Counted from the first letter of the stretch, positions 4,986-31,280 are shown. The stretch is DNA of 64,000 nt from Patescibacteria group bacterium (GCA_004297735.1 SCTI01000002.1:192160-256159), one strand, 5' to 3'. A program made the numbers and translations. Notes: a model not told the origin generated them from the sequence alone.

Positions 4986-5429
4986 ATGAAGTGCCCCTAC
5001 TGTCGTGCCGAGACTACCGATGTTTATAACAGTCGCCCGACCAAATTTGGTACTCAGATTTGGCGACGTAGGCGATGCTTGAGCTGTCATGAGTCATTTA
5101 CTACTTATGAAGCAGCTGATTTAGGATTTATGAAGGTAATGAAAAAAAGTGGAAAGCGCGAGCGCTACTCTCGCGCCAAGCTGTTTAGTGGTATTTATGG
5201 GGCGTTTTTAGAGATTAGTGGTAAGCAAAATGTGGTTGATGCGGTAACCGATACGGTTGAGTCTCGCATTCTAGACACCAAGAAAGAAGAGATCCACACC
5301 GATCAAATTGCCCAGATAGTGCTTGCTACCCTAAAGCACTACAATATGGCCGCGTTTATGCGTTACCTGGCCAACCAGGCGGATGTGGTAAATGAAGCGC
5401 AGTTACGGCGGGAATTAAAGAAGTACTAA
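4986..5429 (+). CDS. nrdR: transcriptional repressor NrdR (zinc ribbon + ATP-cone)
   Basis: MKCPYCRAETTDVYNSRP...RRRRCLSCHESFTTYE is the canonical NrdR N-terminus; 147 aa; RBS ggagg. Confidence 0.85.
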   Translation: MKCPYCRAETTDVYNSRPTKFGTQIWRRRRCLSCHESFTTYEAADLGFMKVMKKSGKRERYSRAKLFSGIYGAFLEISGKQNVVDAVTDTVESRILDTKKEEIHTDQIAQIVLATLKHYNMAAFMRYLANQADVVNEAQLRRELKKY

Positions 5430-5628: not shown

Positions 5629-6387
5629 TTAGCTGTTTTTAGCGCCCTCTCCTGGGGGTGTGCTTTCGGCGCCGCCAGCCTTACCTTCTGGCTCCTTGCG
5701 AGTTGGCTCGTCATCTTCGGTAACAACCTCTTCCTCGCCCTCTTCGACCGCGCCCTCAGGCATTTCGGCCTGCTCGTCAATCTCAGCATCCAGCTCCTCA
5801 AGCTCCTCGTCGCTACGAGGTGGCTCAACCTTAGCAACCAGCTCTTCGGGGGCGGTTAAAACCTCTACCCCAGCTGGGATCTTAAGGTCGGCCACGGTAA
5901 TACTCTTATCAAAATCATCTAACACCGAGATGTCATACTCAATTGATTCGGGCAAGTCACCTGGCAATGCCTCGACCTCAATCGATTCCAGTGGGCGGAC
6001 CAAACTACCCTCCTGCTGGTAGACCGCGGTTGACTCGCCGATCATATGCAGCGGAATCTCGGTCTTAATCTTTTCATCCATCTTAACTAGGTAAAAATCG
6101 GCGTGTAAGATTCGGCCGCTAGGGGCATCAATCTGTACATCATGGAACAAAGCGTTTTTTTGGCGAGCATCATCAATCTTAACTCCAATAATTTGGTTAC
6201 CACCGGCCCGAGCGTAGGCCCGTGACAGATCGCGAGTGTTAATGGTGATACTTTGAGTGTCGCTACCGTGGCCATAAATAACGGCTGGAGTTTGACCCTG
6301 TTGGCGCAACTGGTTAACAGATTTGCCGCGCTGCTCCCGGGTGGTAGCAGTTAGCACAATCTTATCGGTTGTAGCGGTCGAAGACAT
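5629..6387 (-). CDS. rplY: 50S ribosomal protein L25 / general stress protein Ctc (bL25) with acidic C-terminal tail
   Basis: 252 aa. The N-terminal 190 aa match the L25/Ctc fold pattern (TREQRGKSVNQLRQQGQTPAVIYGHG..., HADF...). The C-terminus is an E/D-rich low-complexity tail. Confidence 0.8.
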   Translation of the reverse strand: MSSTATTDKIVLTATTREQRGKSVNQLRQQGQTPAVIYGHGSDTQSITINTRDLSRAYARAGGNQIIGVKIDDARQKNALFHDVQIDAPSGRILHADFYLVKMDEKIKTEIPLHMIGESTAVYQQEGSLVRPLESIEVEALPGDLPESIEYDISVLDDFDKSITVADLKIPAGVEVLTAPEELVAKVEPPRSDEELEELDAEIDEQAEMPEGAVEEGEEEVVTEDDEPTRKEPEGKAGGAESTPPGEGAKNS

Positions 6388-6410
6388 AGAAAATTCCTAT
6401 TTAATAGTAA

Positions 6411-6740
6411 TTAAACCTGGGTGGAGCGAAAGCCGCCGCGACGCTTAGAGATTAGCCGATGAAACTCGGCGATTTCTTCAGCTCTAATCTCACCCATGGT
6501 GGCAAACTTGGCCTCCTCGGCTTGACGCAGATCGGTTTTAGACCGACCCCCGGCCTGACCAATTGGCACCGCCGTCAAAACCGGTAGTGAGCATTCGTGA
6601 CAGTTAAGCTGAACAAAACCGTAACGATTTAAATCTCCCAGGTAGTTAATGTCGTCCAAGTGGTAGCTGGTATCACAGGAGGGGCACTTGTAGAACTCTT
6701 GCAGGTACTTAATGACATCTTGTAAATGTTTACGACTCAT
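6411..6740 (-). CDS. hypothetical protein with C4 zinc-ribbon (CPSC...CHEC)
   Basis: 109 aa; RBS gaggggg; two CxxC pairs. Confidence 0.45.
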   Translation of the reverse strand: MSRKHLQDVIKYLQEFYKCPSCDTSYHLDDINYLGDLNRYGFVQLNCHECSLPVLTAVPIGQAGGRSKTDLRQAEEAKFATMGEIRAEEIAEFHRLISKRRGGFRSTQV

Positions 6741-6797
6741 GGGTAGACCCCCTCTTACACCCCCTATTATACCGCAATCAGGACGAACCTGACCATT

Positions 6798-7847
6798 TTA
6801 TTGCAACGGCTGGCGATGTCGTCCAATTCTAATCAGGCTAGCAATTAACACCACCACAACCACCAACAGCACCAGCAGAGCCACTAGTTTATGAAACCGT
6901 TCTGACATTAAGGCAATTACGCCAAATAGACCGGCCAACAGATACAGGGCGATAACCGCCAGGCGCTGCGACAACCCGGCTTGCAGCAGCAGGTGGTGCA
7001 GGTGCTCACGGTCGGCTGTAAAGGGATGGACCCCCTTACGAATTCGCCGAATAGCCGCCCACAGCGCATCAATAATGGTAAAACCAAGCACCAGCAAAAT
7101 GGTGGCTAGCTTGCCGCCGGAGTAAATGGCCAGCATGGCCAGCATCAACCCCAGAAAATAAGACCCTGAGTCCCCCATAAAAATTTTGGCGGGATAAAAG
7201 TTGAATGGCAGAAAGCCCAGCGTTGAACCGGCCAGCAAAAAGGCCAGTAGAGCGACCAGCGGCTGATCAACCTGTGGGGTCAGCGATAGAGCGGCAATCA
7301 CCAGGGCGGCGATACCGGACACTCCACTAGCCAAGCCATCGAGACCATCTAAGAAGTTGATGACGTTGACCATACCGACCATCCACAAAATACTCAACAG
7401 GTTGGCAACCGGTGTAATGTGAAACTGGAAGCCGATCAACTCAACCGCAAACCGACCGTAGGTTAGATCAATGGTTCCTCCGAGCGGGTTAGAGATGGCG
7501 GTAATACCAATGCCGCCGGCCAAGGCGATACAGGCTGCCAGCGTTTGCCAGCCCAATCTGGCCCAGGGGCTAAGACCCTTAACGTCATCGATCGCCCCCA
7601 CCACTGCTAAAACGGTGGCGGCTAATAAAAGCGCGCCAAGCTGTCGTCCAAAAGGCAAAAACAAGGTGGCCGTAATTAAAAAGGAGCCAAATATGGCCAA
7701 TCCACCCAGATACGGGATCGGCTTAACATGAATTTTACGATCACCCGGATAGGCCAGAATGCCGCGCTGCAGCGCAAACTGACGCACCAGCGGCGTAAGT
7801 GCCAGCGACAACAAAAAACTAGCAACAAAGGCTAAGAAGTAAATCAT
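6798..7847 (-). CDS. UDP-HexNAc:undecaprenyl-phosphate HexNAc-1-phosphate transferase (WecA/TagO/MraY superfamily, GT4 polyprenyl-P transferase)
   Basis: DRKIHVKPIPYLGG, AIDDVKGL, NFLDGLDGLASG and FMGDSGSYFLG motifs of the MraY/WecA family. Polytopic membrane protein of 349 aa. Confidence 0.8.
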   Translation of the reverse strand: MIYFLAFVASFLLSLALTPLVRQFALQRGILAYPGDRKIHVKPIPYLGGLAIFGSFLITATLFLPFGRQLGALLLAATVLAVVGAIDDVKGLSPWARLGWQTLAACIALAGGIGITAISNPLGGTIDLTYGRFAVELIGFQFHITPVANLLSILWMVGMVNVINFLDGLDGLASGVSGIAALVIAALSLTPQVDQPLVALLAFLLAGSTLGFLPFNFYPAKIFMGDSGSYFLGLMLAMLAIYSGGKLATILLVLGFTIIDALWAAIRRIRKGVHPFTADREHLHHLLLQAGLSQRLAVIALYLLAGLFGVIALMSERFHKLVALLVLLVVVVVLIASLIRIGRHRQPLQ

Positions 7848-9574
7848 TTCCGCCGACTCTTAGGGGTTACTTGGAAGGCCAGGTATTTGCCGAGCATCAA
7901 TCGGGTTTGAGCATCAATCGCGGCGGTGGCGCTAAAAGCAATCGAAACCACCGGCACCAGCACCCATTGCAGTAACAAAAACAAGCGACGGCTGCTGCGG
8001 TAGCGGGCCGGACGTGGCGGTAGCGAGATCATGCTAATGGCCACCATGATAATCAACCCAACTAGAGCTATGTTCTGCAAGTTGCTGGCAATCACCGGTA
8101 GCTGATGAGCCAGCTCTTGGCGGCTGAACCGCTCATTTAAAAACAGCGGCAACCAAGCGCCAAAGGTCACAATTAACGCGGTGGTCGACCAGGCAATGTG
8201 CCCTTCGAGTAAGCGAAAAACGTGGACCGACTTGTTCCAAAAACCAATCCGACTGTTAATTAAGCAGTGGCGTACCACATAAGGAAAGTCGGAGATGCCA
8301 TAGGCCCAGCGGCGCAGCTGCTTGTACTGCGCCACAAAGGTCTTGGGATAGGTCTCGGCCAGTACCGCGTCCTGAAACACCGGAGTGTACATTGGTACCA
8401 CCTGATGGTCGCCGTCAAAGGCCAGCCAGCTGCGCCAGTACTGATGGCCGTCTTCAACCGGAGTCGAAACGCTCCAAAAATCGGTATCCAACAGCGCTCG
8501 CAAACCCTGGGCATGGGCCGAAAAGTTACGCAAACGGTGCGGGCGCATGGTCTCAATTAGGTGCCAAAAAGAGTTGTTGGTGGCAATAATTCGCATCGGA
8601 GCCGGGGCGTCCCAAATGTTGTTGTAGAACATTGGAACCGGTTGAAAGCTTTTGCGGCTGCGGTTTGGATCAATGCAGTAAAGATAGGTTAAGACCGAGA
8701 AGTACTGACGACTGGCGCGGTGGTCGGAATCAAAGGTGGTTACCACCACTCGCTCCGGGTCTAGCCCCTGGCCTTGGAGCTGCTCGGCTAGTTGACGACC
8801 GGCGTTGGTAATGTTGCCGCCCTTGCCGATCACCTCACCGGCAATACCGTCGGGATGCTCAATCGCCACGCACAGCCCAAAACGGTCGGCGTAGCGATCG
8901 GCTAGCTCCCGCGCTACCTGCTTGGTCTCCTCTGGCCCCCGCTCCTCGTATGCAATCGCTAGCATAATCTTCTTAGCGGGATAATCAACATCAAATAAAG
9001 CCTTAACCGATGGCTCAATAATATCGCGCGCCTCATTATAAACAGCCATAATAACCACGTGGTAAATTGAATCGGGATCAAGCGTAGCCGTTTGGCGCCC
9101 CTGAATATCGCGCAAGGTTTGAATCTGATTATGCAGCTCCAAATAGCGCTGGCGGTACTGGCTGTTACTGCCAAAACTTTGCCATCGGCTGGCGGCGCTA
9201 GGGTGAGTTCGCAATAAATCGCGCATCCGGCGCTCTGCCTTTGCCAGATATTCGTCGGGGTGGCGCAACCAGTCCACTCGTTCCGACCAGTCGGTTCGCT
9301 CAACCTTGCCCATAGTGCGGTAACCCAAGATCAAATATGAGCTGTAACGAAAAGCCCGTAGTAGCCAGAACAGGTAAAAAGCAATAATGCCATAAACCAC
9401 CACCATTGGCGCAAAAATACTTAGAACAACCGGTAAAACCAGTAGCAACCAGGTGGTTACGCCAGGCAGAATCTCAAGCGCACGGATAAACCAGCGCCGG
9501 TCAACCAGCGGCTGATACCGAACGCTCGGTTTGGTTGATTTTTTAAAGCTTGAATCGGTCGCCGAGCTACTCAT
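7844..9574 (-). CDS. processive family-2 glycosyltransferase (cellulose/chitin/PNAG-synthase-like) with flanking TM segments
   Basis: N-terminal TM helices, then VVIMAVYNEARDI (GT2 DxD region) and a QLRRWAYG motif (Q-x-x-RW), then C-terminal TM helices. 4-bp overlaps with both neighbours indicate an operon. Confidence 0.7.
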   Translation of the reverse strand: MSSSATDSSFKKSTKPSVRYQPLVDRRWFIRALEILPGVTTWLLLVLPVVLSIFAPMVVVYGIIAFYLFWLLRAFRYSSYLILGYRTMGKVERTDWSERVDWLRHPDEYLAKAERRMRDLLRTHPSAASRWQSFGSNSQYRQRYLELHNQIQTLRDIQGRQTATLDPDSIYHVVIMAVYNEARDIIEPSVKALFDVDYPAKKIMLAIAYEERGPEETKQVARELADRYADRFGLCVAIEHPDGIAGEVIGKGGNITNAGRQLAEQLQGQGLDPERVVVTTFDSDHRASRQYFSVLTYLYCIDPNRSRKSFQPVPMFYNNIWDAPAPMRIIATNNSFWHLIETMRPHRLRNFSAHAQGLRALLDTDFWSVSTPVEDGHQYWRSWLAFDGDHQVVPMYTPVFQDAVLAETYPKTFVAQYKQLRRWAYGISDFPYVVRHCLINSRIGFWNKSVHVFRLLEGHIAWSTTALIVTFGAWLPLFLNERFSRQELAHQLPVIASNLQNIALVGLIIMVAISMISLPPRPARYRSSRRLFLLLQWVLVPVVSIAFSATAAIDAQTRLMLGKYLAFQVTPKSRRK

Positions 9575-10191: not shown

Positions 10192-10195
10192 GTAA

Positions 10196-10762
10196 TTATT
10201 TAATAAAGCGGAACGAATTTATAAAGCCTTCTGTATCGATAGGTTCTGATTGAGAGCCGATTGAATTTATTACATACCGCTTCCCATTATAAATCGCGAT
10301 GACTGCCGTGCCTGTCCCTTGTTCTTGGTGGTTAATATCAACGCGCTTAGCCGGCTGACCATCTAGCTTAACATCAGAGACCGAACCCACGGTTAACCCA
10401 GCGAGGGTCAGCCCTTCAATGGCTGAGGCATATTGTTGCTCCTGGGTCAGTGTGGCATCGAGATTGCCATCGACCATCACCCCGGTGCTATACAGCGGCC
10501 CATTATTAACTCCATATTTAGCCTGCTGATACATCTCACTACTCTGGACTGATGGTTTACCCGGAAACTTGGCACAAAAACTATCTTGCTTATAGCAGTG
10601 TTCTTTCCAAGACAACGAAGGCTTTTCTCCTATCATTGGATTTGCTAAGCCGGTAGCTGGCAGGAATATATTAATGACACTCAACTTCATAAAGACGTAG
10701 GCAAGCCACAGTCCAAAAATAATTCCGAGCATCACCTTTGGTTTATTATCTGCAATGGTCAT
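10196..10762 (-). CDS. hypothetical membrane-anchored protein (signal-anchor + extracytoplasmic domain)
   Basis: 188 aa with a single N-terminal TM (MLGIIFGLWLAYVFM). No recognisable motif. Confidence 0.45.
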   Translation of the reverse strand: MTIADNKPKVMLGIIFGLWLAYVFMKLSVINIFLPATGLANPMIGEKPSLSWKEHCYKQDSFCAKFPGKPSVQSSEMYQQAKYGVNNGPLYSTGVMVDGNLDATLTQEQQYASAIEGLTLAGLTVGSVSDVKLDGQPAKRVDINHQEQGTGTAVIAIYNGKRYVINSIGSQSEPIDTEGFINSFRFIK

Positions 10763-10842
10763 GCCGCAAATAATAACACTTTTTTTGTATTTTACAATAT
10801 TAAAAGCGGCTTAAGCCCACTTATCAGCTCCAGGAATTATAC

Positions 10843-11229
10843 CTACACCAATGCCTTTGCTCGCCCAGAACTCTGATTAACCAGCTTTTTATCAAATGTC
10901 CAAACCGGCAGGGCGCCCTGCAGCTCAGCGTAATTCATAAGGCAGCAATCCAAGAATGATAAGGCGGGATGGTCTAAATACTCGGTGATTGCTCGGCGGA
11001 ACATGATGCGGTTACAGTTAAAAACCGGCTCATCAACTACCTTATTGAGATTATCAGCCACCGTCTCTCGTGGAAGCTCATAAAACTTCTCCAGCGCGAA
11101 GGCAAGCTCCACAATAATTGCATCTGGAATCTGCAGCTCCGGCGAACGCACCAACAGCGCGTCGATTTTAGCGGTTCGATCTACGTCACGGTCAAGCAAC
11201 CAGTCTAGGAGCACATTCGTATCTAACAC
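10843..11229 (-). CDS. vapC: type II toxin VapC (PIN-domain ribonuclease)
   Basis: MLDTNVLLDWL PIN N-terminal motif with conserved Asp; 128 aa; directly downstream of the antitoxin. Confidence 0.8.
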   Translation of the reverse strand: MLDTNVLLDWLLDRDVDRTAKIDALLVRSPELQIPDAIIVELAFALEKFYELPRETVADNLNKVVDEPVFNCNRIMFRRAITEYLDHPALSFLDCCLMNYAELQGALPVWTFDKKLVNQSSGRAKALV

Positions 11230-11230
11230 C

Positions 11231-11485
11231 TTAAACCGACCCTTTTACCTGTGCAGTATACCCCGCCCCGCTAACATACTCCTTGTGAGCAGTCTTGGCT
11301 TTTGCGAGAGCCTGCTTGTTGGCGGCCCGCAGCTCTTGAATGGTCTGCTCGCGGCCAACTACATACTCTCCGTATCGATTTCGAGTAAACGAAACCAACA
11401 TACCTGGTTTAATACCAAGATGATCGCGAATATCCTTCGGAATAGTGGTCGTACCCTTGTCGGTGAGTATGGTTTTATATGTCAT
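11231..11485 (-). CDS. vapB: type II antitoxin VapB (AbrB/MazE/SpoVT swapped-hairpin fold)
   Basis: TIPKDIRDHLGIKPGMLV SpoVT/AbrB-type DNA-binding motif; 84 aa; 1-nt gap to vapC. Confidence 0.75.
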   Translation of the reverse strand: MTYKTILTDKGTTTIPKDIRDHLGIKPGMLVSFTRNRYGEYVVGREQTIQELRAANKQALAKAKTAHKEYVSGAGYTAQVKGSV

Positions 11486-11513
11486 GGTATGAATTATACA
11501 TTTAATTCATACC
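11486..11513 (-). promoter_or_regulatory. vapBC operator: perfect 11-bp inverted repeat ggtatgaatta-N6-taattcatacc abutting the vapB start codon
   Basis: Seen directly in the sequence; perfect dyad symmetry. TA antitoxins classically autoregulate at such palindromes. Confidence 0.55.
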
Positions 11514-11528
11514 AAATGTCAAGGGCTG

Positions 11529-11723
11529 TTACGCTGGTCTAGCCTTCTTCATCTTGCGCCGCTCGTGGCGCTCAGCCAGCATATCAAACTCAAACTGACT
11601 GGCAATTAGATCCTTGGCCTCCTCCAGTGTCATATAAAATAGCTGCGGATCCTCATACGGATTAGCCCTTAAATCTTTGATTTTCTTACCACGAGATCTA
11701 CTCATACTCTCTTCCCCATCCAT
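11529..11723 (-). CDS. hypothetical small protein (64 aa)
   Basis: ORF only; charged and helical in character. Confidence 0.3.
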   Translation of the reverse strand: MDGEESMSRSRGKKIKDLRANPYEDPQLFYMTLEEAKDLIASQFEFDMLAERHERRKMKKARPA

Positions 11724-11827
11724 TAGTTACTGACCTCAGTATTGCAAGATAGGGCTCAATGCAACATGGCGGTTGTTACAAACCTCGCCATGTTAGTTAT
11801 GTTAGTTTTAGCAGTTTGCGCTAATGC

Positions 11828-12746: not shown

Positions 12747-12845
12747 CTTATGGTTAATGTTTTGGGTAGTTTTTGTGTTCAGCCCACCTGATAGTCATTG
12801 CCAAAGTAGTCCAAAACTGCTACTATAAGCCAGTTCTTTTGGCGT

Positions 12846-12922
12846 GGGCTCGTGGTGTAGAGGCCTAACATGCCTCCCTGTCACGGAGGAGATCGCCGGT
12901 TCGAATCCGGTCGGGCCCGCCA
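12846..12922 (+). tRNA. tRNA-Asp (anticodon GTC)
   Basis: Acceptor gggctcg/cgggccc (one G-U); anticodon loop ctGTCac; GGTTCGAATCC T-arm; CCA encoded. A TTGCCA-17-TACTAT promoter lies at about 12800-12830. Confidence 0.85.
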
Positions 12923-12951
12923 TTGCAATTATAAGTGTTTTGTGGTATAGT
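12918..12951 (+). promoter_or_regulatory. sigma70-type promoter P1 (cattgcaattat ... TTGCAA-17-TATAGT), starts in the tRNA-Asp 3-prime end
   Basis: -35 TTGCAA at 12923-12928, 17-bp spacer, -10 TATAGT at 12946-12951. One of three near-identical promoters. Confidence 0.5.
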
Positions 12952-12994
12952 AATTAATCCTAATTCTGTAAAGACTCTACAGGAAGAACCTACC

Positions 12995-13501
12995 ATGTCA
13001 GGAATCACCCCGGCACACACCAAGCGTTGGCTCGAAGAGCGGGCTTGGTGGAGCGCCAACTGGCGTAGCTGCCTTGCCACTCTCGACTCCGAGCGAGCCC
13101 TCACGTTCGTAAAGATGCATTACGGCCTAGATGACAATGGTCAGCCGAGTGCTGATCGCCAGGGATCTACGCTCAAATACCTTGGGGTCTCGTACAACTG
13201 TTCGCCCGAGAGAGTGAAGATGCAGATCAATGAGACAAAAAACCTCCTTCAGTCGCCGCTCGAGCCACAAAGCTACGTGGTAATGCGAATGCCTCGCCGC
13301 TTCAACCCACCGGTAAAGAACTTGCCGCTTTCTCAACGGCTACTCAACAGACTGGCAGAAAGGATTGGCACCCTCAATGAGCTGCTGGCTCTTACGGAGG
13401 AAGATATCCTCAAGATCCCCAGCGTGGGTGATCACCTGCTAAAGGAGCTGACTGAGTACCTCGAGGCTCGCGGCCTCAAGCTGGCTCAGCCAGTCTCGTG
13501 A
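12995..13501 (+). CDS. chimeric sigma-70 region-4-like HTH + RNA polymerase alpha-subunit C-terminal-domain-like (HhH) protein
   Basis: N-terminal half LDSERALTFVKMHYGLDDNGQ...TLKYLGVSYNCSPERVKMQINETKNLL aligns by eye to sigma-70 region 4.2 ([48 protein letters not shown]). C-terminal [54 protein letters not shown] aligns to alpha-CTD ([53 protein letters not shown]). Start at MSGITPAH (12995) chosen for its RBS aggaag. Confidence 0.5.
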   Translation: MSGITPAHTKRWLEERAWWSANWRSCLATLDSERALTFVKMHYGLDDNGQPSADRQGSTLKYLGVSYNCSPERVKMQINETKNLLQSPLEPQSYVVMRMPRRFNPPVKNLPLSQRLLNRLAERIGTLNELLALTEEDILKIPSVGDHLLKELTEYLEARGLKLAQPVS

Positions 13502-13619
13502 CTCCCAGCGCCTCGTGCGCAGCAAAAGCTCTACGGAGAGATTCCGTACCAGCCCGCTGCGTGCGGGGCGCTTTTGCTATTCTGGTGCGGAAAAGTTCTA
13601 ACCTCATCCGATACGACCC

Positions 13620-13652
13620 ATCATTGCAATTATTTAATATTTATGTTATAAT
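13620..13652 (+). promoter_or_regulatory. sigma70-type promoter P2 (tcattgcaattat ... TTGCAA-17-TATAAT)
   Basis: -35 at 13624-13629, 17-bp spacer, -10 TATAAT at 13647-13652. Confidence 0.5.
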
Positions 13653-13707
13653 ATAACAATCTTTTCAAGTGTACCTGGTGCGTAAGCACTCAACTAAAGG
13701 AGCAGCC

Positions 13708-14061
13708 ATGCCCAGCCCATTCATGGCAGATATGGGAACCGGTCCGGTGTACGGTGCGGATGAGGACAACGCGGCCACCAACATCAAGACCCTCATCGCC
13801 GACTGCGGGCTAGAGGGTGCCTCATGCGTACGTGATGCCTCGGGTGACTGCGACGGTCGCTTCACCTTCGTGATCTATCGGCCCGACGCTGGTCTCTGCG
13901 CGGTCGTGGACATGCCGGGACTCCAGCTCGAGAAGGTTCGGCGCATGGGAGACGACAACGTGGTCGGCTTCCCACGGCTCTACGTCAATGGCGGGAGCTG
14001 GATCTGGATGTACGCGGTCGACATCATCAAGATGTCGCTCGAACCGACTGAAGACGACTAG
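13708..14061 (+). CDS. hypothetical protein (117 aa), high-GC
   Basis: RBS aaaggag. GC content markedly above flanks. Confidence 0.45.
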   Translation: MPSPFMADMGTGPVYGADEDNAATNIKTLIADCGLEGASCVRDASGDCDGRFTFVIYRPDAGLCAVVDMPGLQLEKVRRMGDDNVVGFPRLYVNGGSWIWMYAVDIIKMSLEPTEDD

Positions 14062-14070
14062 GAGCAGATC

Positions 14071-14275
14071 GATGAACACCCTCGTGCATATCGTGTTGGG
14101 CGTCTTCCTACTGGCGACAGGCGGAGGGCTTCTCTGGCTTGCCAGGTGGGGCTACCGCAGCTACCTCAAGGAAGCGCCGCGTGGCTACTACCACATGCTG
14201 AACCAGATGACGGTTCTCATCGTCGGAGCCTGCTTCAGTTTTACGGCGGCGATCATCTTGTTCGCCACCATCTAA
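14071..14275 (+). CDS. hypothetical small two-TM membrane protein (68 aa)
   Basis: RBS taggag; two hydrophobic helices. The ORF track gives a longer out-of-context start at 13988. Confidence 0.4.
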
Positions 14276-14449
14276 CCCCCATGGGTTTTCATGAAGTTTT
14301 ATGAAGGCCCCTCTGGGGGTTTCTTCGTAGTATGTATGCAGAGAGACCGGCGGAGGCTTTTCATTTGTATTTATAAGAGTTTTATGCTATAAGTATGTAC
14401 TTGTGGCCTCTATAAGAGGAGGCTTGTTCGACCAGGAGGTCAAAACAAC

Positions 14450-14851
14450 ATGCCAAGCACCATTTCGCTGGGGCTGACGCCATCGCTCGTACGCATGGCT
14501 CAGAAGGTTCTGGAGGCCTATAAGGCCGACTACCTCGATAGGGAGGGTCATGAGGATGCCTACTTCGAAACCGCCGAACACACGGTGAAGCATCTGATCC
14601 CCAACCTGCACGCAGCCATCCGCTTCGTCAACGAGCTGTGCGAAGCCGGCTACGGCCTGATCGTGCCGGATAGGGAGGACCAAGAGGCGCTACTCCCCAC
14701 GCTCGCTGCTTGGCACCAGGAAGGTAGCTCATTCAAGCCGCTCGATCTGCTCGAGTTCATCCGTGGCGTCGCCCGGGCGCACATCTGGGATCAGCTACGC
14801 AACGAGGCCAATGCGATCCGAGTTCAGCGCGGTGAGTGCCCGGCCGGCTAG
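14450..14851 (+). CDS. hypothetical protein (133 aa)
   Basis: RBS accaggagg; followed by a conserved terminator. Confidence 0.5.
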   Translation: MPSTISLGLTPSLVRMAQKVLEAYKADYLDREGHEDAYFETAEHTVKHLIPNLHAAIRFVNELCEAGYGLIVPDREDQEALLPTLAAWHQEGSSFKPLDLLEFIRGVARAHIWDQLRNEANAIRVQRGECPAG

Positions 14852-14862
14852 CCCCAAGCAGC

Positions 14863-14899
14863 AAGGAAATCCCTGCCGTTTGGGGCTCTTTCCTTTTTT
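14863..14899 (+). terminator. intrinsic terminator, conserved family member (aaggaaatCCCTGCcGTttGGGGctctttcc + T6)
   Basis: Nested stem plus T-run. Shares about 25 nt with the hairpins at 15943 and 19285. Confidence 0.55.
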
Positions 14900-14940
14900 A
14901 TGCATTTGACCTTATCCCCTCACCCTCTCATTATCTAGAC

Positions 14941-15444
14941 ATGGAGAATAAAGAGCTACGGACCGAACTGCTAGCGATGCGTAAAGCCGATCAATCTTTG
15001 CGCCTGCAGTGGCCAGACAAGCACAATGACCCTAAGTGGGTTGAGCGGGTCAAAGAGCTTGATCACCTACACACAACGCGAATGAAGCAGATTGTCGAGC
15101 AAAATGGCTGGCCGACAGTCTCTATGGTCGACAAGGATGGCTCTGAGGCGGCTTGGTTGTTGGTTCAGCATGCCGATCATGACCTGGAGTTTCAGCTTAC
15201 TTGCCTGGATTTGATGGGAAAAAAGGCCAATGATGTTGACCCGATTAACATCGCTTACCTCACCGATCGCACCTTAGTAAGCCGAGGCAAGCCCCAAATC
15301 TATGGCACCCAGTTTTACCGACCAAGCGGCAAGGGCAAGCATATCCCGCAACCGATTCAAGATCCTGAGCTTGTTGATGAGCGCCGTGCTGAGCTTGGTC
15401 TGCATACGCTTAAGGAGTATTCGCAAGTTATCAACCGAGAATAA
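14941..15444 (+). CDS. hypothetical protein (167 aa)
   Basis: Start moved to MENKELRTEL because the ORF-track start at 14836 would read through the terminator. No strong RBS. Confidence 0.4.
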   Translation: MENKELRTELLAMRKADQSLRLQWPDKHNDPKWVERVKELDHLHTTRMKQIVEQNGWPTVSMVDKDGSEAAWLLVQHADHDLEFQLTCLDLMGKKANDVDPINIAYLTDRTLVSRGKPQIYGTQFYRPSGKGKHIPQPIQDPELVDERRAELGLHTLKEYSQVINRE

Positions 15445-15454
15445 GCCGTCTCTG

Positions 15455-15487
15455 GCTATTGCAATTATTTCATTTTTATTATATAAT
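15455..15487 (+). promoter_or_regulatory. sigma70-type promoter P3 (ctattgcaattat ... TTGCAA-17-TATAAT)
   Basis: -35 at 15459-15464, 17-bp spacer, -10 TATAAT at 15482-15487. Confidence 0.5.
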
Positions 15488-15522
15488 AAATAATCTTTCG
15501 TCCTACAATAGGGAGTAAAGCA

Positions 15523-15900
15523 ATGACTACCTTCAGTAAGGTCAAAGACGTACTAGAGCAGGCCAACACCGACTGCGAGCGGCTCCGCCTGGAGGCAGAT
15601 GCCCGCCTTCAGGGAGCGCAAGATGCTGAGGGCTATAGAGCAAAGCTGGTTGAACGCGCACAGATAGTCGCCGCTCTCGGCAAAAAGGTTGAACCGCTCC
15701 TCGGAAACTCTCCTGCGGAGCTGGACCTCTACCACCGCATACTCACGTTGGCGGGCACAGCAGAACATGCCCTCAAGGAGTATGAACAAGATCAGAGCGG
15801 GACTTTGGGGTTGGGCGTAATCCTCCACTATCGGGACGATACCACGAACGACCCAAATCGCCTGGAGCGTCTAGTAGAGCTCGCGGGCAAGTTGTCCTAA
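15523..15900 (+). CDS. hypothetical protein (125 aa)
   Basis: RBS gggag 7 nt upstream; coiled-coil-like. Confidence 0.5.
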   Translation: MTTFSKVKDVLEQANTDCERLRLEADARLQGAQDAEGYRAKLVERAQIVAALGKKVEPLLGNSPAELDLYHRILTLAGTAEHALKEYEQDQSGTLGLGVILHYRDDTTNDPNRLERLVELAGKLS

Positions 15901-15942
15901 TCACCGCCACCATACGGACCCCCATCTAGTCCTCATGCAGTA

Positions 15943-15980
15943 CGGAAAATCCCTGCTGTATGGGGGCTTTTTCGTATTTT
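15943..15980 (+). terminator. intrinsic terminator, conserved family member (cggaaaatCCCTGCtGTatGGGGGcttttcg + tatttt)
   Basis: Same conserved core as the hairpin at 14863. Confidence 0.5.
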
Positions 15981-15994
15981 GTTATACTGCATTT

Positions 15995-16687
15995 ATGTCA
16001 AACCGGTTAGAAAAATACTTTTATAAAAATAAGGGGCGCCAAATATATAAATGGGTTCATTATTTTGATATCTACGATCGGTATTTTAAGCAGTTTCGTA
16101 AACGACCAGTTACGGTTGTGGAGTTTGGGGTGCTTCATGGTGGCTCACTGCAAATGTGGAAAAAATATTTTGGGCGCAAGGCACGCATAATTGGAGTAGA
16201 TATAAACCCCGGATGCAAGCAGTTTGAAGAAAAGCAGATTGAAATTTTTACCGGCGACCAGGCAAGTCGCAGCTTTTTACGAAAGCTTCGCAAAGAAATT
16301 GGACCAATTGACGTAATCATTGATGACGGCGGTCACACAATGAAGCAGCAGATTACAACCTTTGAAGAAATGTGGCCAGCTATGAGCGATGGCGGTGTTT
16401 ACTTAATAGAGGATCTCCACACCAGCTACTGGAAGCTATATGGGGGTGGCTACCACAAGCGCGGTACTTTTATTGAATTTGCCAAAGATCTTATCGATCA
16501 ATTAAACGCTTGGCATAGCCGAGACAAAAAACGGTTTAAAGTAAATAAGTATACCAAGAGCATAAAGGCGATTCATACGTATTCAAGCGTAATGGTTTTT
16601 GAAAAAGCCAACATTACTCGACCTTACGATGAGCAAAGAGGCCATGAAAGCGATATTGAGTTTTCTTACCTCGGCTTTAGCAAATAG
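15995..16687 (+). CDS. class I SAM-dependent methyltransferase, CmcI (cephalosporin hydroxylase)/rhamnosyl-O-methyltransferase family
   Basis: KWVHYFDIYDRYF, VVEFGVLHGGSL, IIDDGGH and YLIEDLH are signatures of the PF04989-type MTase (from memory). Low GC (about 38%). Start at MSNRLEKYF chosen to avoid the terminator. Confidence 0.6.
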   Translation: MSNRLEKYFYKNKGRQIYKWVHYFDIYDRYFKQFRKRPVTVVEFGVLHGGSLQMWKKYFGRKARIIGVDINPGCKQFEEKQIEIFTGDQASRSFLRKLRKEIGPIDVIIDDGGHTMKQQITTFEEMWPAMSDGGVYLIEDLHTSYWKLYGGGYHKRGTFIEFAKDLIDQLNAWHSRDKKRFKVNKYTKSIKAIHTYSSVMVFEKANITRPYDEQRGHESDIEFSYLGFSK

Positions 16688-16737: not shown

Positions 16738-16763
16738 ATACAATTATTGTATATTTATTGTAT
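16738..16763 (+). promoter_or_regulatory. RHH/RelE operator: atacaat-t-attgtat 7-1-7 inverted repeat plus third half-site attgtat overlapping the start codon
   Basis: Seen directly; palindrome sits between a TTGACA -35 (16725-16730) and the ATG. Confidence 0.5.
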
Positions 16764-16989
16764 GAAGAAACTATCAAATACTCGGACTATTAATATATCC
16801 CTGCCAGTAAAACTGGTAGACGAGATGGATAAGGCCGCCCAAGGTGAGTACTCCACCCGTAGCGATTTTATTCGTGACTCTATTTTGCGAAAACTGAGCT
16901 CAACTCAGGATCGCTGGGAGTTAGCGGCAGATTTTACCGCTGTTAAAAGGGGTGGCGTAGATATTGACGAACTTCTAAAGCGACTGTAG
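16762..16989 (+). CDS. ribbon-helix-helix antitoxin (CopG/ParD family)
   Basis: TINISLPVKLVDEMDKAAQGEYSTRSDFIRDSILRKL is the classic RHH beta-strand/helix motif. 75 aa from MKKLSN. Confidence 0.7.
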   Translation: MKKLSNTRTINISLPVKLVDEMDKAAQGEYSTRSDFIRDSILRKLSSTQDRWELAADFTAVKRGGVDIDELLKRL

Positions 16990-16998
16990 CACCCGCTG

Positions 16999-17244
16999 AT
17001 GACCGATAAGCTTACGAAGCAGCTGGCCAAGCTCAGTACTAAAGAGAGAGCGATCGTGAAAACGATGTTATTACAGCTCAAAACGGGTGATATTCTTGGT
17101 TTACAGATTAGCCGACTTAAGGGTCACGAGGATATTTTTCGCCTCCGCAAAGGTAGGTTGCGTATTATTTACCGACAAGTGGATGATTCTATCCATATCC
17201 TGGCGATTGAGAGAAGGTCCGAGAAAACTTATCGCGACTTTTAA
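16999..17244 (+). CDS. type II toxin, RelE/ParE family
   Basis: 81 aa. RIIYRQVDDSIHILAIERRSEKTYRDF C-terminus is typical of the RelE/ParE fold. Located 10 nt after the antitoxin stop. Confidence 0.75.
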   Translation: MTDKLTKQLAKLSTKERAIVKTMLLQLKTGDILGLQISRLKGHEDIFRLRKGRLRIIYRQVDDSIHILAIERRSEKTYRDF

Positions 17245-17396
17245 TGAATTGTTAATGTTTAATATTAGACATTTTTTAGTAATTATGTTATGCTTTATCT
17301 CAACTACAGGTACTGCCACTTTATAACCAGGCAGTAGTGATGAATGTTAGACTTCTGGTCTCGACTGTTCGTCAGCCGAGTAGCAGAAAGGTATTC

Positions 17397-18611
17397 ATGC
17401 AACGTAAATCAAGTTTTAAGTCCCCCTCTACCCGAGGCGGGAAGGTATTTCGTAATAATAAGTTTGGCGGAGGTAATCGCCGACGTAATGGTGGTGGCCA
17501 GCACGGTAAGTACATTGACCCGTCACGATTCGTAAACACCGCCGTAGAGCGGGCCGAAGAGGCACCATTTGTGCCTGAACATAGCTTTAACGACTTTGGC
17601 TTACTGCCTCAGCTAGAAAAAGCGCTGGCGGCCAAGGGCTACTCTACCCCTACTCCAATTCAGGACGGTGCAATCAAGCCGGCAATGGAAGGTCGCGATG
17701 TGATTGGTCTCGCCAATACCGGTACCGGTAAAACGGCGGCCTTTACCCTACCGATCATTCACCGCTTGGTAAATCAGCCACAACTAGGAATCGCTTTGAT
17801 TATGGCCCCGACTCGCGAGCTAGCGGTCCAGATCGATGATGAGTTTAAAGAGTTCGCCAAGCATACCCACCTAAAATCGGCGCTGTGCCTGGGCGGTGTA
17901 AGCATTCACCGTCAGATTGCTCAGTTAAGGCGACGCCCACAGGTAATCATTGGAACTCCTGGGCGACTTAAGGATTTGTTTAACAATAATCACTTGCCAC
18001 TAAACAAGGTTGGCGTAGTGGTACTGGACGAAGCCGACCACATGTTGGATATGGGCTTCATTCAGGACATTCGCTTTTTACTCGGTCAGCTGCCGGATAA
18101 GCGCCAGTCGCTATGCTTTAGCGCTACTCTCACACCTGAGATTAAACAGCTGATTCACGGGATTATGACCGATCCGGTTACCGTTTCGGTTCGCACCGGC
18201 GACACCAGTAGCCAGGTCGAGCAAAACGTCATTCGCGGTGGCTCGAAGGAAGATAAGTTCCGTATTCTGGAAGAGATGCTGCGCCAGCCCGACTTCGAGA
18301 AGGTTCTGATTTTTGGACAGACCAAGTTCGGCGTACAACGACTGGCCGATAACCTAACTCGGATTGGCATTGCTGCCGAGGCGATTCATGGTAACAAAAC
18401 CCAGCCAAAGCGTCAGAAGTCACTGCGGGCCTTTAAGAGCGGCCAGGTTTCAGTATTAGTGGCAACCGATGTTGCCGCCCGTGGCCTGGACATTCCAAAG
18501 GTAAGCCACGTGATTAACTTTGATCAGCCGGCGACCTACGAAGACTACATTCACCGCATTGGCCGTACCGGCCGCGCCGGACGCACCGGCCAAGCTCTGA
18601 CTTTTATTTAA
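17397..18611 (+). CDS. DEAD-box ATP-dependent RNA helicase with N-terminal RGG/RNG-rich extension
   Basis: Q-motif, ANTGTGKTAAF (motif I), VLDEADHMLDMGF (DEAD), SAT and HRIGRTGRAGRTG (motif VI). N-terminus RGGKVFRNNKFGGGNRRRNGGGQHGK. Start at 17397 (RBS gaaagg) preferred over 17337. Confidence 0.85.
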   Translation: MQRKSSFKSPSTRGGKVFRNNKFGGGNRRRNGGGQHGKYIDPSRFVNTAVERAEEAPFVPEHSFNDFGLLPQLEKALAAKGYSTPTPIQDGAIKPAMEGRDVIGLANTGTGKTAAFTLPIIHRLVNQPQLGIALIMAPTRELAVQIDDEFKEFAKHTHLKSALCLGGVSIHRQIAQLRRRPQVIIGTPGRLKDLFNNNHLPLNKVGVVVLDEADHMLDMGFIQDIRFLLGQLPDKRQSLCFSATLTPEIKQLIHGIMTDPVTVSVRTGDTSSQVEQNVIRGGSKEDKFRILEEMLRQPDFEKVLIFGQTKFGVQRLADNLTRIGIAAEAIHGNKTQPKRQKSLRAFKSGQVSVLVATDVAARGLDIPKVSHVINFDQPATYEDYIHRIGRTGRAGRTGQALTFI

Positions 18612-20841: not shown

Positions 20842-20867
20842 GATCTGATTGTACTATATCTGTACAC

Positions 20868-20895
20868 TAAAAAGCGCCCAGATGGGCGCTTTTTA
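20868..20895. terminator. intrinsic terminator (aaaaagcgccca-gat-gggcgcttttt), bidirectionally U-flanked
   Basis: Perfect stem flanked by A5 and T5; lies 3-prime of the parvulin gene. Confidence 0.55.
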
Positions 20896-20917
20896 GGTTC
20901 AATCTTAACTAAATTAG

Positions 20918-30368: not shown

Positions 30369-31280
30369 ATGGGCTTACGCGACCTCATTACCGACTTTTT
30401 AGAGCATATGGAGATTGAGCAAAACCGCTCTCAAAAAACGGTGGCCAACTACGACCGCTACCTACAGCGATTGGTTGAGTTTGCCGGTGATATTTCAATC
30501 GATAAACTTGATGCCGAGCTGGTGCGCAAGTGGCGGCTGTGGCTCAATCGCCTAACCGATAATGGTGGCGAGTCAATTAGTAAAACCACCCAGAATTATC
30601 ACTTGATAGCCTTACGTAGTTTTTTAAAGTACCTGGCTAAGCGCGACATTCCGGCCTTAACCAGCGACAAGATTGAGCTGGCCACCGTTCAACGGCCGCA
30701 GGTAACCTTTTTAGATACCGACGAGCTCGAGCGCCTAGTGGGCGCCATCGATGTTTCGACCCCGGTCGGCCTGCGTGACCGCGCCATTATTGAGCTGCTG
30801 TTTAGTGGCGGATTACGCGTAAGTGAACTGGTGTCGCTCAACCGCGACCACATTAATTTAAAGCGACTGGAGTTTAGCATTCGCGGTAAGGGCCAAAAGG
30901 ATCGGTTGATCTTTATCTCCCCCACCGCCGCCGAGTGGCTCGATCAGTACCTCCACAGTCGTAAAGACAACTTTAAGCCCCTGTTTATTCATTACTCCGG
31001 CAGCAAAGACGGGCTGGACGACGGCGCCTATACCCGGCTGACCGCTCGCAGCGTGCAGCGGCTGGTTGGCCGATACGCGCGGCTGGCCGGCATCACCAAA
31101 CACGTTACGCCTCACACCCTGCGGCACTCCTTTGCCACCGATCTGTTGAGCAACGGAGCCGATCTGCGTAGTGTTCAAGGGTTACTGGGCCACGCCAACG
31201 TCTCAACCACCCAAATCTACACTCACCTCACCGACCCCCAGCTCAAAAAGGTTCACGAAAAGTTCCACCGAAAGCGCTAG
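30369..31280 (+). CDS. site-specific tyrosine recombinase XerC/XerD
   Basis: R...HxxR...Y active-site region LRHSFATDLLSNGADLRSVQGLLGHANVSTTQIYTHL; 303 aa. Confidence 0.85.
   Translation: MGLRDLITDFLEHMEIEQNRSQKTVANYDRYLQRLVEFAGDISIDKLDAELVRKWRLWLNRLTDNGGESISKTTQNYHLIALRSFLKYLAKRDIPALTSDKIELATVQRPQVTFLDTDELERLVGAIDVSTPVGLRDRAIIELLFSGGLRVSELVSLNRDHINLKRLEFSIRGKGQKDRLIFISPTAAEWLDQYLHSRKDNFKPLFIHYSGSKDGLDDGAYTRLTARSVQRLVGRYARLAGITKHVTPHTLRHSFATDLLSNGADLRSVQGLLGHANVSTTQIYTHLTDPQLKKVHEKFHRKR

Follow-up and report, generated by a model that had tools for sequence, protein, structure and literature searches.

We analysed a 64,000-nucleotide (nt) stretch of the chromosome of a Patescibacteria group bacterium (GCA_004297735.1, SCTI01000002.1:192160-256159), hereafter called the window, in which the 11-mer ATTGCAATTAT recurs in three promoter-like repeats (P1, P2 and P3) between a tRNA-Asp gene and a DEAD-box helicase gene. 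The window belongs to the Saccharimonadales (Saccharibacteria, Candidate Phyla Radiation (CPR)), and the helicase homologs returned by a homolog search are from Saccharimonadia. An earlier reading of the same DNA, here called the original prediction, had described the repeats as three near-identical strong promoters driving a cassette. By comparison with related loci, the region between the two genes is a predicted strain-variable island of about 4.3 kb, in which the repeats head promoter-gene-terminator units. Below we describe the units, their relatives and the way in which the island may have been assembled.

Results

Judged by its Pfam families, the window is a stretch of ordinary chromosome that encodes RecA, FtsK, type IV pilus proteins and a single Xer-type recombinase, and the genes that flank the island are chromosomal (tRNAs, the helicase, SurA-like, NDK and others). 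In the relative L124, whose helicase is 81% identical, the genes follow in the same order as in the window: tRNA-Thr, tRNA-Gly, an SH3 gene, tRNA-Asp, the array, a ribbon-helix-helix (RHH)/ParE toxin-antitoxin pair and the helicase. The array genes of the two genomes differ, and only a DUF6624 gene and the RHH/ParE pair are common to both. L127-L130, whose helicases are 70% identical, lack this synteny and were uninformative.

The island parts, all on the + strand, are ordered P1-g1-T1; P2-g2-g3-T2; Px-g4-T3; a TTGACC-type promoter and g5; P3-g6-T4; a methyltransferase gene; and the RHH/ParE pair. The left anchor is the intact tRNA-Asp(GTC) gene (12846-12922; ARAGORN; Rfam 59.7 bits), which is 99-100% identical in seven related arrays and is preceded by a promoter-like site, TTGCCA-17-TACTAT (12798-12826, promoter scan); no terminator was seen between the tRNA and P1. 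The P1 module (12922-12951) is composed of the 11-mer, the -35 hexamer TTGCAA within it (12923-12928), a 17-nt spacer, and TGn with TATAGT (12946-12951). Behind it lies g1 (12995-13501, 168 aa), the cargo of cassette 1, which encodes a helix-turn-helix (HTH) like that of sigma-70 region 4 and a domain like the C-terminal domain of the RNA polymerase alpha subunit (alpha-CTD), and is listed at NCBI as a hypothetical protein of a Patescibacteria metagenome-assembled genome (MAG). Predicted terminator T1 (13507-13572), a long GC-rich hairpin followed by UUUUGCUAUU (-43.8 kcal/mol, z = -4.35), closes the unit, and the second 11-mer is adjoined by a sequence (AGTTCTAACCTCATCCGATACGACCCATCA, 13594-13623) that looks like a copy, now decayed, of the T-arm and acceptor 3' end of tRNA-Asp.

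The P2 module (13623-13652; 11-mer, 17-nt spacer, TGn and TATAAT at 13647-13652) precedes g2 (13708-14061, 117 aa) and g3 (14072-14275, 67 aa, hydrophobic and, as judged by eye, probably a membrane protein), and T2 follows (14274-14321, -28.9 kcal/mol, z = -4.85). Px (14363-14393) is of the P1 type, with ATTTGTATTTAT, a -35 TTGTAT (14365-14370), a 17-nt spacer, and TGn and TATAAG (14388-14393); it heads g4 (14450-14851, 133 aa) and T3 (14850-14887, -24.1 kcal/mol, z = -4.37), which is homologous to T4. A promoter of another type, TTGACC-17-CATTAT (14906-14934, promoter scan), stands before g5 (14941-15444; DUF6624 by Pfam), the sole gene among g1-g6 that is also found in L124. The P3 module (15458-15487; 11-mer, 17-nt spacer, TATAAT at 15482-15487) starts 13 nt past the g5 stop codon and precedes g6 (15523-15900, 125 aa) and T4 (15928-15968, -26.0 kcal/mol, z = -5.87). 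T4 overlaps the start of a mechanically called open reading frame (ORF), 15935-16687, the first ~40 nt of which are terminator; the start of this gene, a window-specific methyltransferase (Methyltransf_24/CmcI-like) that is not in L124, is more likely the ATG at 15995. The RHH/ParE pair (16759-16989 and 16999-17244) is present in L124 and not in the relative L122, and the conserved DEAD-box helicase gene (17340-18611) forms the right flank.

Five of the six genes g1-g6 thus have their own promoter-like site directly ahead (the exception, g3, lies behind g2), and a terminator closes most units. The hairpins after g1, g3, g4 and g6 range from -24 to -44 kcal/mol with z < -4.3 each, carry a U-tract and are related to each other. 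Among g1-g6, only g1 (RNA_pol_A_CTD, 1.9e-7) and g5 match Pfam families, g2, g3, g4 and g6 being without a family match, and none of the six has a PHROG or a PADLOC match. The methyltransferase has a PHROG match and a weak PADLOC match to mad2. An Rfam scan over the island at a permissive threshold returned the tRNA only.

The three repeats lie where the original prediction had placed them, with 11-mers at 12922-12932, 13623-13633 and 15458-15468, and each combines TTGCAA with a spacer of exactly 17 nt and TATAGT (P1) or TATAAT (P2 and P3), the gap from the end of the 11-mer to the -10 being 13 nt in all three. The identity beyond the hexamers had been put at about 12 nt, including 5 nt upstream of the -35; the common block is in fact 11 nt, with 1 base upstream and 4 downstream of TTGCAA, and the leading c of cattgcaattat is common to P1 and P2 only, being t in P3. 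The reported overlap of P1 with the tRNA is correct: since the tRNA ends at 12922, the P1 11-mer starts with the A of the tRNA's CCA. Three is also the right count of exact copies, and a diverged fourth member, Px, had been overlooked. It resembles the P1 type (ATTTGTATTTAT-AAGAGTTTTATGC-TATAAG) by repeat families, alignment and the upstream sequences of the genes. P2 and P3 are 87% identical over 31 nt. A TGn extended -10 occurs in P1 and P2 as well as in Px. The stretch AATnAATCYT is found about 5-15 nt past the -10 of P1, P2, P3 and the P1-type copy of L124 (window 12952-12966, 13653-13668 and 15488-15500; L124 5086-5100), so the promoter module appears to reach into the initial transcribed region.

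The 64 kb contain just three exact copies of the 11-mer, which all lie on the + strand and within a span of 2.6 kb. In 100 dinucleotide-preserving shuffles the mean number of copies was 0.04, and 0 of the 100 reached three. Elsewhere in the window, 11-mers with one mismatch lie only at 1714 (-) and 57887 (-), both without a -10 and at non-promoter positions. All three copies recur at identical spacing in L001, an independent Logan assembly made from the same run.

P1, P2 and P3 are very probably working promoters, as had been proposed. We counted as -10-like any hexamer that agrees with TATAAT at four or more of the six positions, the A at position 2 being one of them, and calculated the expectation for sequence of the same composition. 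Such a hexamer stands exactly 13 nt past the 11-mer in 10 of 13 family copies (0.072 expected; binomial p ~1e-9), and in 6 of 9 independent spacer types by our own count (p ~1e-5 by hand estimate). The distance from the end of the -10 to the start codon is 44 nt for P1, 56 nt for P2 and 36 nt for P3, with ribosome-binding sites (RBS) of the AGGA/GGAG type, and the internal copies come after a terminator or a stop codon. The fixed -10 slot across unrelated spacers and the placing of the copies with respect to RBS, start codons and upstream terminators are good comparative evidence for promoter function.

A search with the tRNA-Asp 3' end plus ATTGCAA returned nine further loci, from metagenomes and two Saccharimonadales MAGs. 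Across seven distinct arrays, pairwise identity is 0.99 in the tRNA, 1.00 in the 11-mer, 0.37 in the next 13 nt, 0.53 in the -10 slot and 0.28 in the following 40 nt. The 11-mer is hence the last conserved block, and variable DNA begins 10 nt past the tRNA. All between-array blastn alignments end within 2 nt of the last base of the 11-mer, except for pairs with a common P1-type spacer. Seven different first cassettes are seen among related arrays. L132 and L136 are 100% identical from at least 1,000 nt upstream through the 11-mer and unrelated directly after it, indicating a strain-level difference in the first cassette and probably a recent cassette swap; their source assemblies are ERZ724522 and ERZ724505, accession numbers that suggest one study. 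L141, a more distant relative, has neither the 11-mer nor an array; a terminator and a convergent gene come after its tRNA-Asp, as in an empty state. The region is therefore a strain-variable cassette array, in line with the suggestion, also made in the original prediction, of modular duplication typical of mobile cassettes.

The contigs found by way of the upstream SH3 gene (L142, L145 and L146) stop in or before tRNA-Asp and gave no unbiased junctions. Short-read contigs from several samples break inside tRNA-Asp or at the repeated array terminators (start of L001, equal to window position 12894; end of L142; starts of L123, L125 and L126). These breaks, including those of L142 and L001 within the tRNA, are compatible with repeats, strain heterogeneity or co-existing array variants, without proving any of them.

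The idea that the repeats are att repeats of the tRNA 3' end had been set aside in favour of promoters. Between the 18 nt that end the tRNA (ATCCGGTCGGGCCCGCCA) and the 18 nt immediately ahead of the P2 11-mer there are 12 in-register matches (p ~4e-4; just 47 of 128,000 window positions reach 12 of 18). In L137 a homologous segment, located at the end of a first cassette of another kind, agrees with the tRNA at 14 of 18 positions, a score found at no other window position and at only 2 of 2.1 million positions of viral DNA. The remnants of the window, L137 and L124 have in common AAG(T/C)TC(T/C)AACYYCATCCG, which aligns with the T-arm. The L124 remnant spans 5010-5055, with the repeat running to 5066, and this internal copy retains CGCCA before its 12-mer. 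Cassette 1 is thus closed at its far end by a direct repeat of the 3' part of the tRNA (window 13594-13633, 12 of 18 plus 11 of 11; L137; L124). A partial tRNA repeat is a hallmark of additive genomic islands at tRNA genes (PMC4898812). With a decayed tRNA end in register ahead of P2 and a better-preserved copy in a relative, the att-repeat reading also holds; promoter and att-type repeat are, on this comparative evidence, not alternatives. In L124 the displaced junction carries the P1-type spacer that follows the tRNA directly in the window and in L136, so L124 looks like such an array with one further cassette (a 284-aa gene) inserted at the tRNA.

The modules recur around unrelated genes. 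The P1-type module, which spans the 11-mer to about +15 of the predicted transcript, is present twice in the window (P1 and Px), after the tRNA in L136 and internally in L124 (at 5056), and it precedes three unrelated genes: g1 in the window, a 153-aa gene in L124 and a 177-aa gene in L136. P2-type sequence follows the remnant in L137, and L122 and L124 have a TTGACA-type module in common, at 87% identity, with different genes behind it. Terminator copies are 98% identical within L124, and by blastn window 15934-15975 equals L124 9224-9265 at 100% over 42 nt despite different flanking genes; these values exceed the identity of the neighbouring genes. The terminator hairpins form a family with the core CCCCAUGCAG...CUGUAUGGGG and a U-tract (T1-T4 in the window; L124 ~7278-7320, 8676-8720 and 9222-9262). 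Promoter and terminator modules hence behave as apparently portable linkers around exchangeable ORFs.

The cargo differs in composition from the core genome. GC content at third codon positions (GC3) is 0.78 in g2, 0.81 in g3 and 0.76 in g4, more than 3 standard deviations above core genes (0.554 +/- 0.07, 27 core genes), and 0.32 in the methyltransferase. The GC content of the promoter regions is 31-32% for P1, P2 and P3 and 42% for Px, those ahead of g2, g3 and g4 being 32-42%. High GC3 behind lower-GC promoter regions suggests that the cargo of g2-g4 came from a high-GC donor and was placed behind resident-type promoters; the actinobacterial hosts of Saccharibacteria are one possible source, a speculative one. 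The start codon of the DUF6624 gene lies just 6-7 nt past a -10-like hexamer in both the window (14929-14943, CATTAT) and L124 (7333-7352, TAAAAT), which suggests a leaderless mRNA.

Two other places near the island also vary. The segment after tRNA-Gly(CCC), a second variable spot beside a tRNA, holds a gene for a 188-aa protein with a hydrophobic N-terminus and a PIN toxin/antitoxin pair in the window (10192-11800), just one 58-aa ORF in L124 (2555-2870), a 209-aa gene and a 604-aa helicase in L140 (5965-9406) and an EamA transporter in L136 (6114-7028). In L122 a reverse transcriptase gene (RVT_1, 347 aa; 6097-7140) lies between a 286-aa gene and the SurA-like gene, and the equivalent place in the window (~20842-20917) is without it.

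The viral sequences searched gave no candidate source for the island. Scans of viral contigs for the tRNA/11-mer junction gave no match, and those for the remnant AAGTTCTAACYTCATCCG gave five chance matches, by eye in coding DNA, with no attP-bearing phage candidate. Against phage records, blastn of the island returned the tRNA only, and tblastn of g1, g2 and g4 returned nothing. The 11-mer with TATAAT at fixed distance occurs in viral contigs at no fewer than 120 loci with one full match each, consistent with chance in AT-rich phage DNA, and this candidate link was dropped. Reiterated early promoters are known from phage T7 (A1-A3), and the locus resembles them in having several near-identical strong sigma-70 promoters within a few kb. 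Viral contigs L094 (113-150 and 1411-1448) and L104 (819-829(-), 1240-1270 and 1734-1780) have reiterated promoters or operator-like repeats of their own that contain ATTGCAATTAT; by eye they share no homology beyond the short motif and no tRNA junction, and were rejected as relatives in favour of convergent analogues.

Discussion

We propose that the 11-mers are at once promoter parts and recombination scars heading small cassettes in an island at tRNA-Asp, and give this overall explanation a probability of roughly 0.7. A module would comprise the 11-mer with the -35, an AT-rich spacer of 17 nt, a -10 close to consensus and a short common initial transcribed stretch, and each would head a separate small transcription unit of a promoter, one or two ORFs and an intrinsic terminator. 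The 11-mer would have two roles, supplying the -35 and forming the last conserved block of the tRNA-Asp flank, where cassette DNA begins. P1 would then be the junction copy and P2 a displaced junction copy with a decayed tRNA-Asp 3' end, an att-type repeat that closes cassette 1; P3 may derive from the P2 module by copying, and Px from the P1 module. At P2 the tRNA-like part has decayed around an intact 11-mer, presumably kept by selection because it is needed as the -35. We infer that cassettes entered by recombination at or next to the 11-mer, mediated perhaps by a recombinase acting in trans or by short-homology recombination after natural transformation.

Several observations weigh against this explanation. 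Promoter activity and transcription starts are read from sequence, and the -35 TTGCAA agrees with the TTGACA consensus at only four of six positions in P1, P2 and P3. The junction search pattern contained ATTGCAA, so relatives with another tRNA flank were invisible to it and only the following 4 nt, TTAT, are unbiased; TTAT is retained by 8 of the 9 loci that the search returned and, with the window included, by 7 of 8 distinct junction sequences. The window remnant alone is non-significant in an unanchored local alignment, and no tRNA remnant can be made out ahead of Px or P3; the same alignment of the tRNA 3' half with the sequences upstream of P3, Px and the inner promoters of L124, L136 and L138 was likewise non-significant. 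The remnants of the three arrays have derived indels in common though their first cassettes differ, which fits poorly with three simple independent integrations: the remnant may either be ancestral, with cassette 1 repeatedly replaced between two 11-mers, or travel with a mobile cassette family. There is no integrase in or beside the array in the window or in the relatives' arrays. The sole recombinase of the window, an Xer-type protein (30369-31280), is encoded 15 kb from the array, is syntenic in relatives and scores 137 bits on an integron-integrase model, below the cut-off of 265; no dif-like site was recognised at the junction, and Xer/dif-type integration there is speculative. Finally, promoter modules have recombined relative to ORFs at points besides the 11-mer. 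A single precise crossover site cannot explain this, and short-homology recombination or gene conversion must contribute, which is plausible given RecA, type IV pili and natural competence.

The strongest competing account takes this last point further, attributing all turnover to homologous recombination or gene conversion after natural transformation. The 11-mer would then be the start of a promoter module and no recombinase site, the tRNA flank and the reiterated promoter and terminator modules would act as portable homology, and the promoters would still be real. Arrays have modules in common that flank unrelated ORFs, with breakpoints that fall within or beside these modules, and terminators are 98-100% identical within and between arrays, above the neighbouring genes, which suggests gene conversion. 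The window encodes RecA and type IV pilus proteins, Saccharibacteria have been demonstrated to be naturally competent (PMC10633639), and no integrase is nearby. However, the modules, at ~30-60 nt and 65-90% identity, are short for RecA-dependent exchange. Seven unrelated cassettes start within ~2 nt of the end of the same 11-mer, and a partial tRNA duplication closes cassette 1; both are expected marks of site-directed insertion that homologous recombination alone does not predict. We consider this account possible, with odds clearly below even.

A bolder version of our proposal, which we hold to be doubtful, is that the tRNA-Asp 3' end with ATTGCAATTAT is the fixed attachment site of an integron-like, integrase-unlinked platform for gene capture in Saccharimonadales, at which captured genes are expressed at once. 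The site would give the -35 and the incoming cassette the -10 at the right distance, reconstituting a strong promoter; older cassettes would keep their own copy of the site, and the hairpins might double as recombination substrates and terminators. Integron cassettes are typically promoterless and expressed from Pc, their attC sites have RYYYAAC/GTTRRRY cores, and intI lies beside attI. The island is like an integron in its co-oriented array at one fixed site, a varying cassette 1 (presumably the newest insertion), a toxin-antitoxin pair and a promoter element at the fixed site, and unlike one in lacking an adjacent intI and in having a promoter for each cassette. By inspection, the intergenic hairpins hold no RYYYAAC/GTTRRRY cores and, with their U-tracts, look like terminators.

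The original prediction had also raised the possibility that the 11-mer is a dedicated site for the product of g1, the ORF at 12995, that is, an operator overlapping the -35 in a self-contained cassette circuit. In its favour, g1 is the first gene behind the first copy, it has the sigma region-4-like HTH, the domain that reads -35 elements, together with the alpha-CTD-like domain, and ATTGCAAT is a perfect 8-bp palindrome. However, g1 is a singleton among 5.8 billion clusters, in which only g1 itself was found, and its relatives are at most 41% identical and match chiefly in the alpha-CTD part. In the readable array DNA of six 11-mer carriers (L124, L132, L135, L136, L137 and L138; only ~0.6-2 kb each in L132, L135, L136 and L138) there is no g1 homolog. 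With the 11-mer in at least six arrays in which no g1 was seen, its conservation cannot depend on g1. Conservation also runs into the spacer and the initial transcribed region, as in duplicated modules and unlike a short operator, and we regard the proposed circuit as very unlikely. The remote homologs P0135, P0056 and P0013 have Pfam Sigma70_r4 and RNA_pol_A_CTD domains and form a scattered family; many further proteins have tandem alpha-CTD repeats, and the alpha-CTD-like part of g1 is a helix-hairpin-helix domain. Weakest of all, and in our view scarcely credible, is the notion that the repeats are merely att copies, scars left by recombination, or the product of a recent tandem duplication at this locus, with incidental promoter likeness: the sequences are AT-rich, a simple promoter scan gives 23 sites against 12.9 expected in 16 kb, and a tRNA remnant does lie ahead of P2, yet unrelated spacers in other genomes hold a -10-like hexamer at constant distance, RBS and start codons are rightly placed, internal copies stand behind a terminator or stop codon, and a family found in several genomes is not a recent local duplication.

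Two known kinds of element come close to the arrangement proposed here. For Alteromonas, flexible genomic islands of the additive kind have been described that lie at tRNA genes and include partial tRNA repeats (PMC4898812). Like them, the locus is a hotspot beside a tRNA at which strains differ in the number and kind of cassettes, even between very close genomes, with a partial tRNA repeat downstream of a cassette and cargo of foreign base composition. Unlike them, it has cassettes of 0.6-1.1 kb with one or two ORFs and their own reiterated promoter and terminator, contains no integrase, phage or integrative and conjugative element (ICE) genes, carries a -35 in the conserved block on the tRNA side, and sits in a reduced-genome CPR bacterium. 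Phage morons possess a promoter and a terminator of their own and a deviant GC content (PMC3594210). The cassettes are similarly independent units with promoter, terminator and deviant GC that mostly encode small proteins of unknown function; in contrast to morons, they lie in a chromosome, in tandem and in one orientation, as an array with a tRNA gene for its anchor, and no phage genes are among the 25 most frequent of the 81 Pfam families of the window.

The rAID systems of Bacteroidales, defined by an adjacent tyrosine recombinase and low-GC orphan immunity genes (PMC12247911), are like the island in their co-oriented short genes, conserved intergenic motifs and strain-variable content. They differ in that the island has no adjacent recombinase and mostly high-GC cargo, and no immunity domain was recognised among the cassette proteins (Pfam, PADLOC and PHROG). 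With no adjacent recombinase, no attC cores and cassettes that have their own promoters, the locus is neither an integron nor a rAID system. It is, as far as these comparisons go, a putative tRNA-anchored additive island filled with moron-like cassettes, and we found no description of such a locus in searches of the literature on hypervariable cassettes, integrons and tRNA islands of Saccharibacteria and Patescibacteria.

Little is understood of how Saccharibacteria, which live attached to host bacteria and have very small genomes, acquire and express new genes. The locus appears to be a dedicated slot in which otherwise identical strains carry different, probably highly expressed small proteins, several of them of foreign composition. 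It is hence a candidate determinant of strain-specific dealings with hosts, phages or competitors. If cassette entry is indeed site-specific without a linked integrase, this would be a new arrangement for gene capture. Genetic systems now exist for Saccharibacteria (PMC10633639), for which the island's promoter and terminator modules might serve as native parts for expression, and the tRNA-Asp junction as a neutral landing site.

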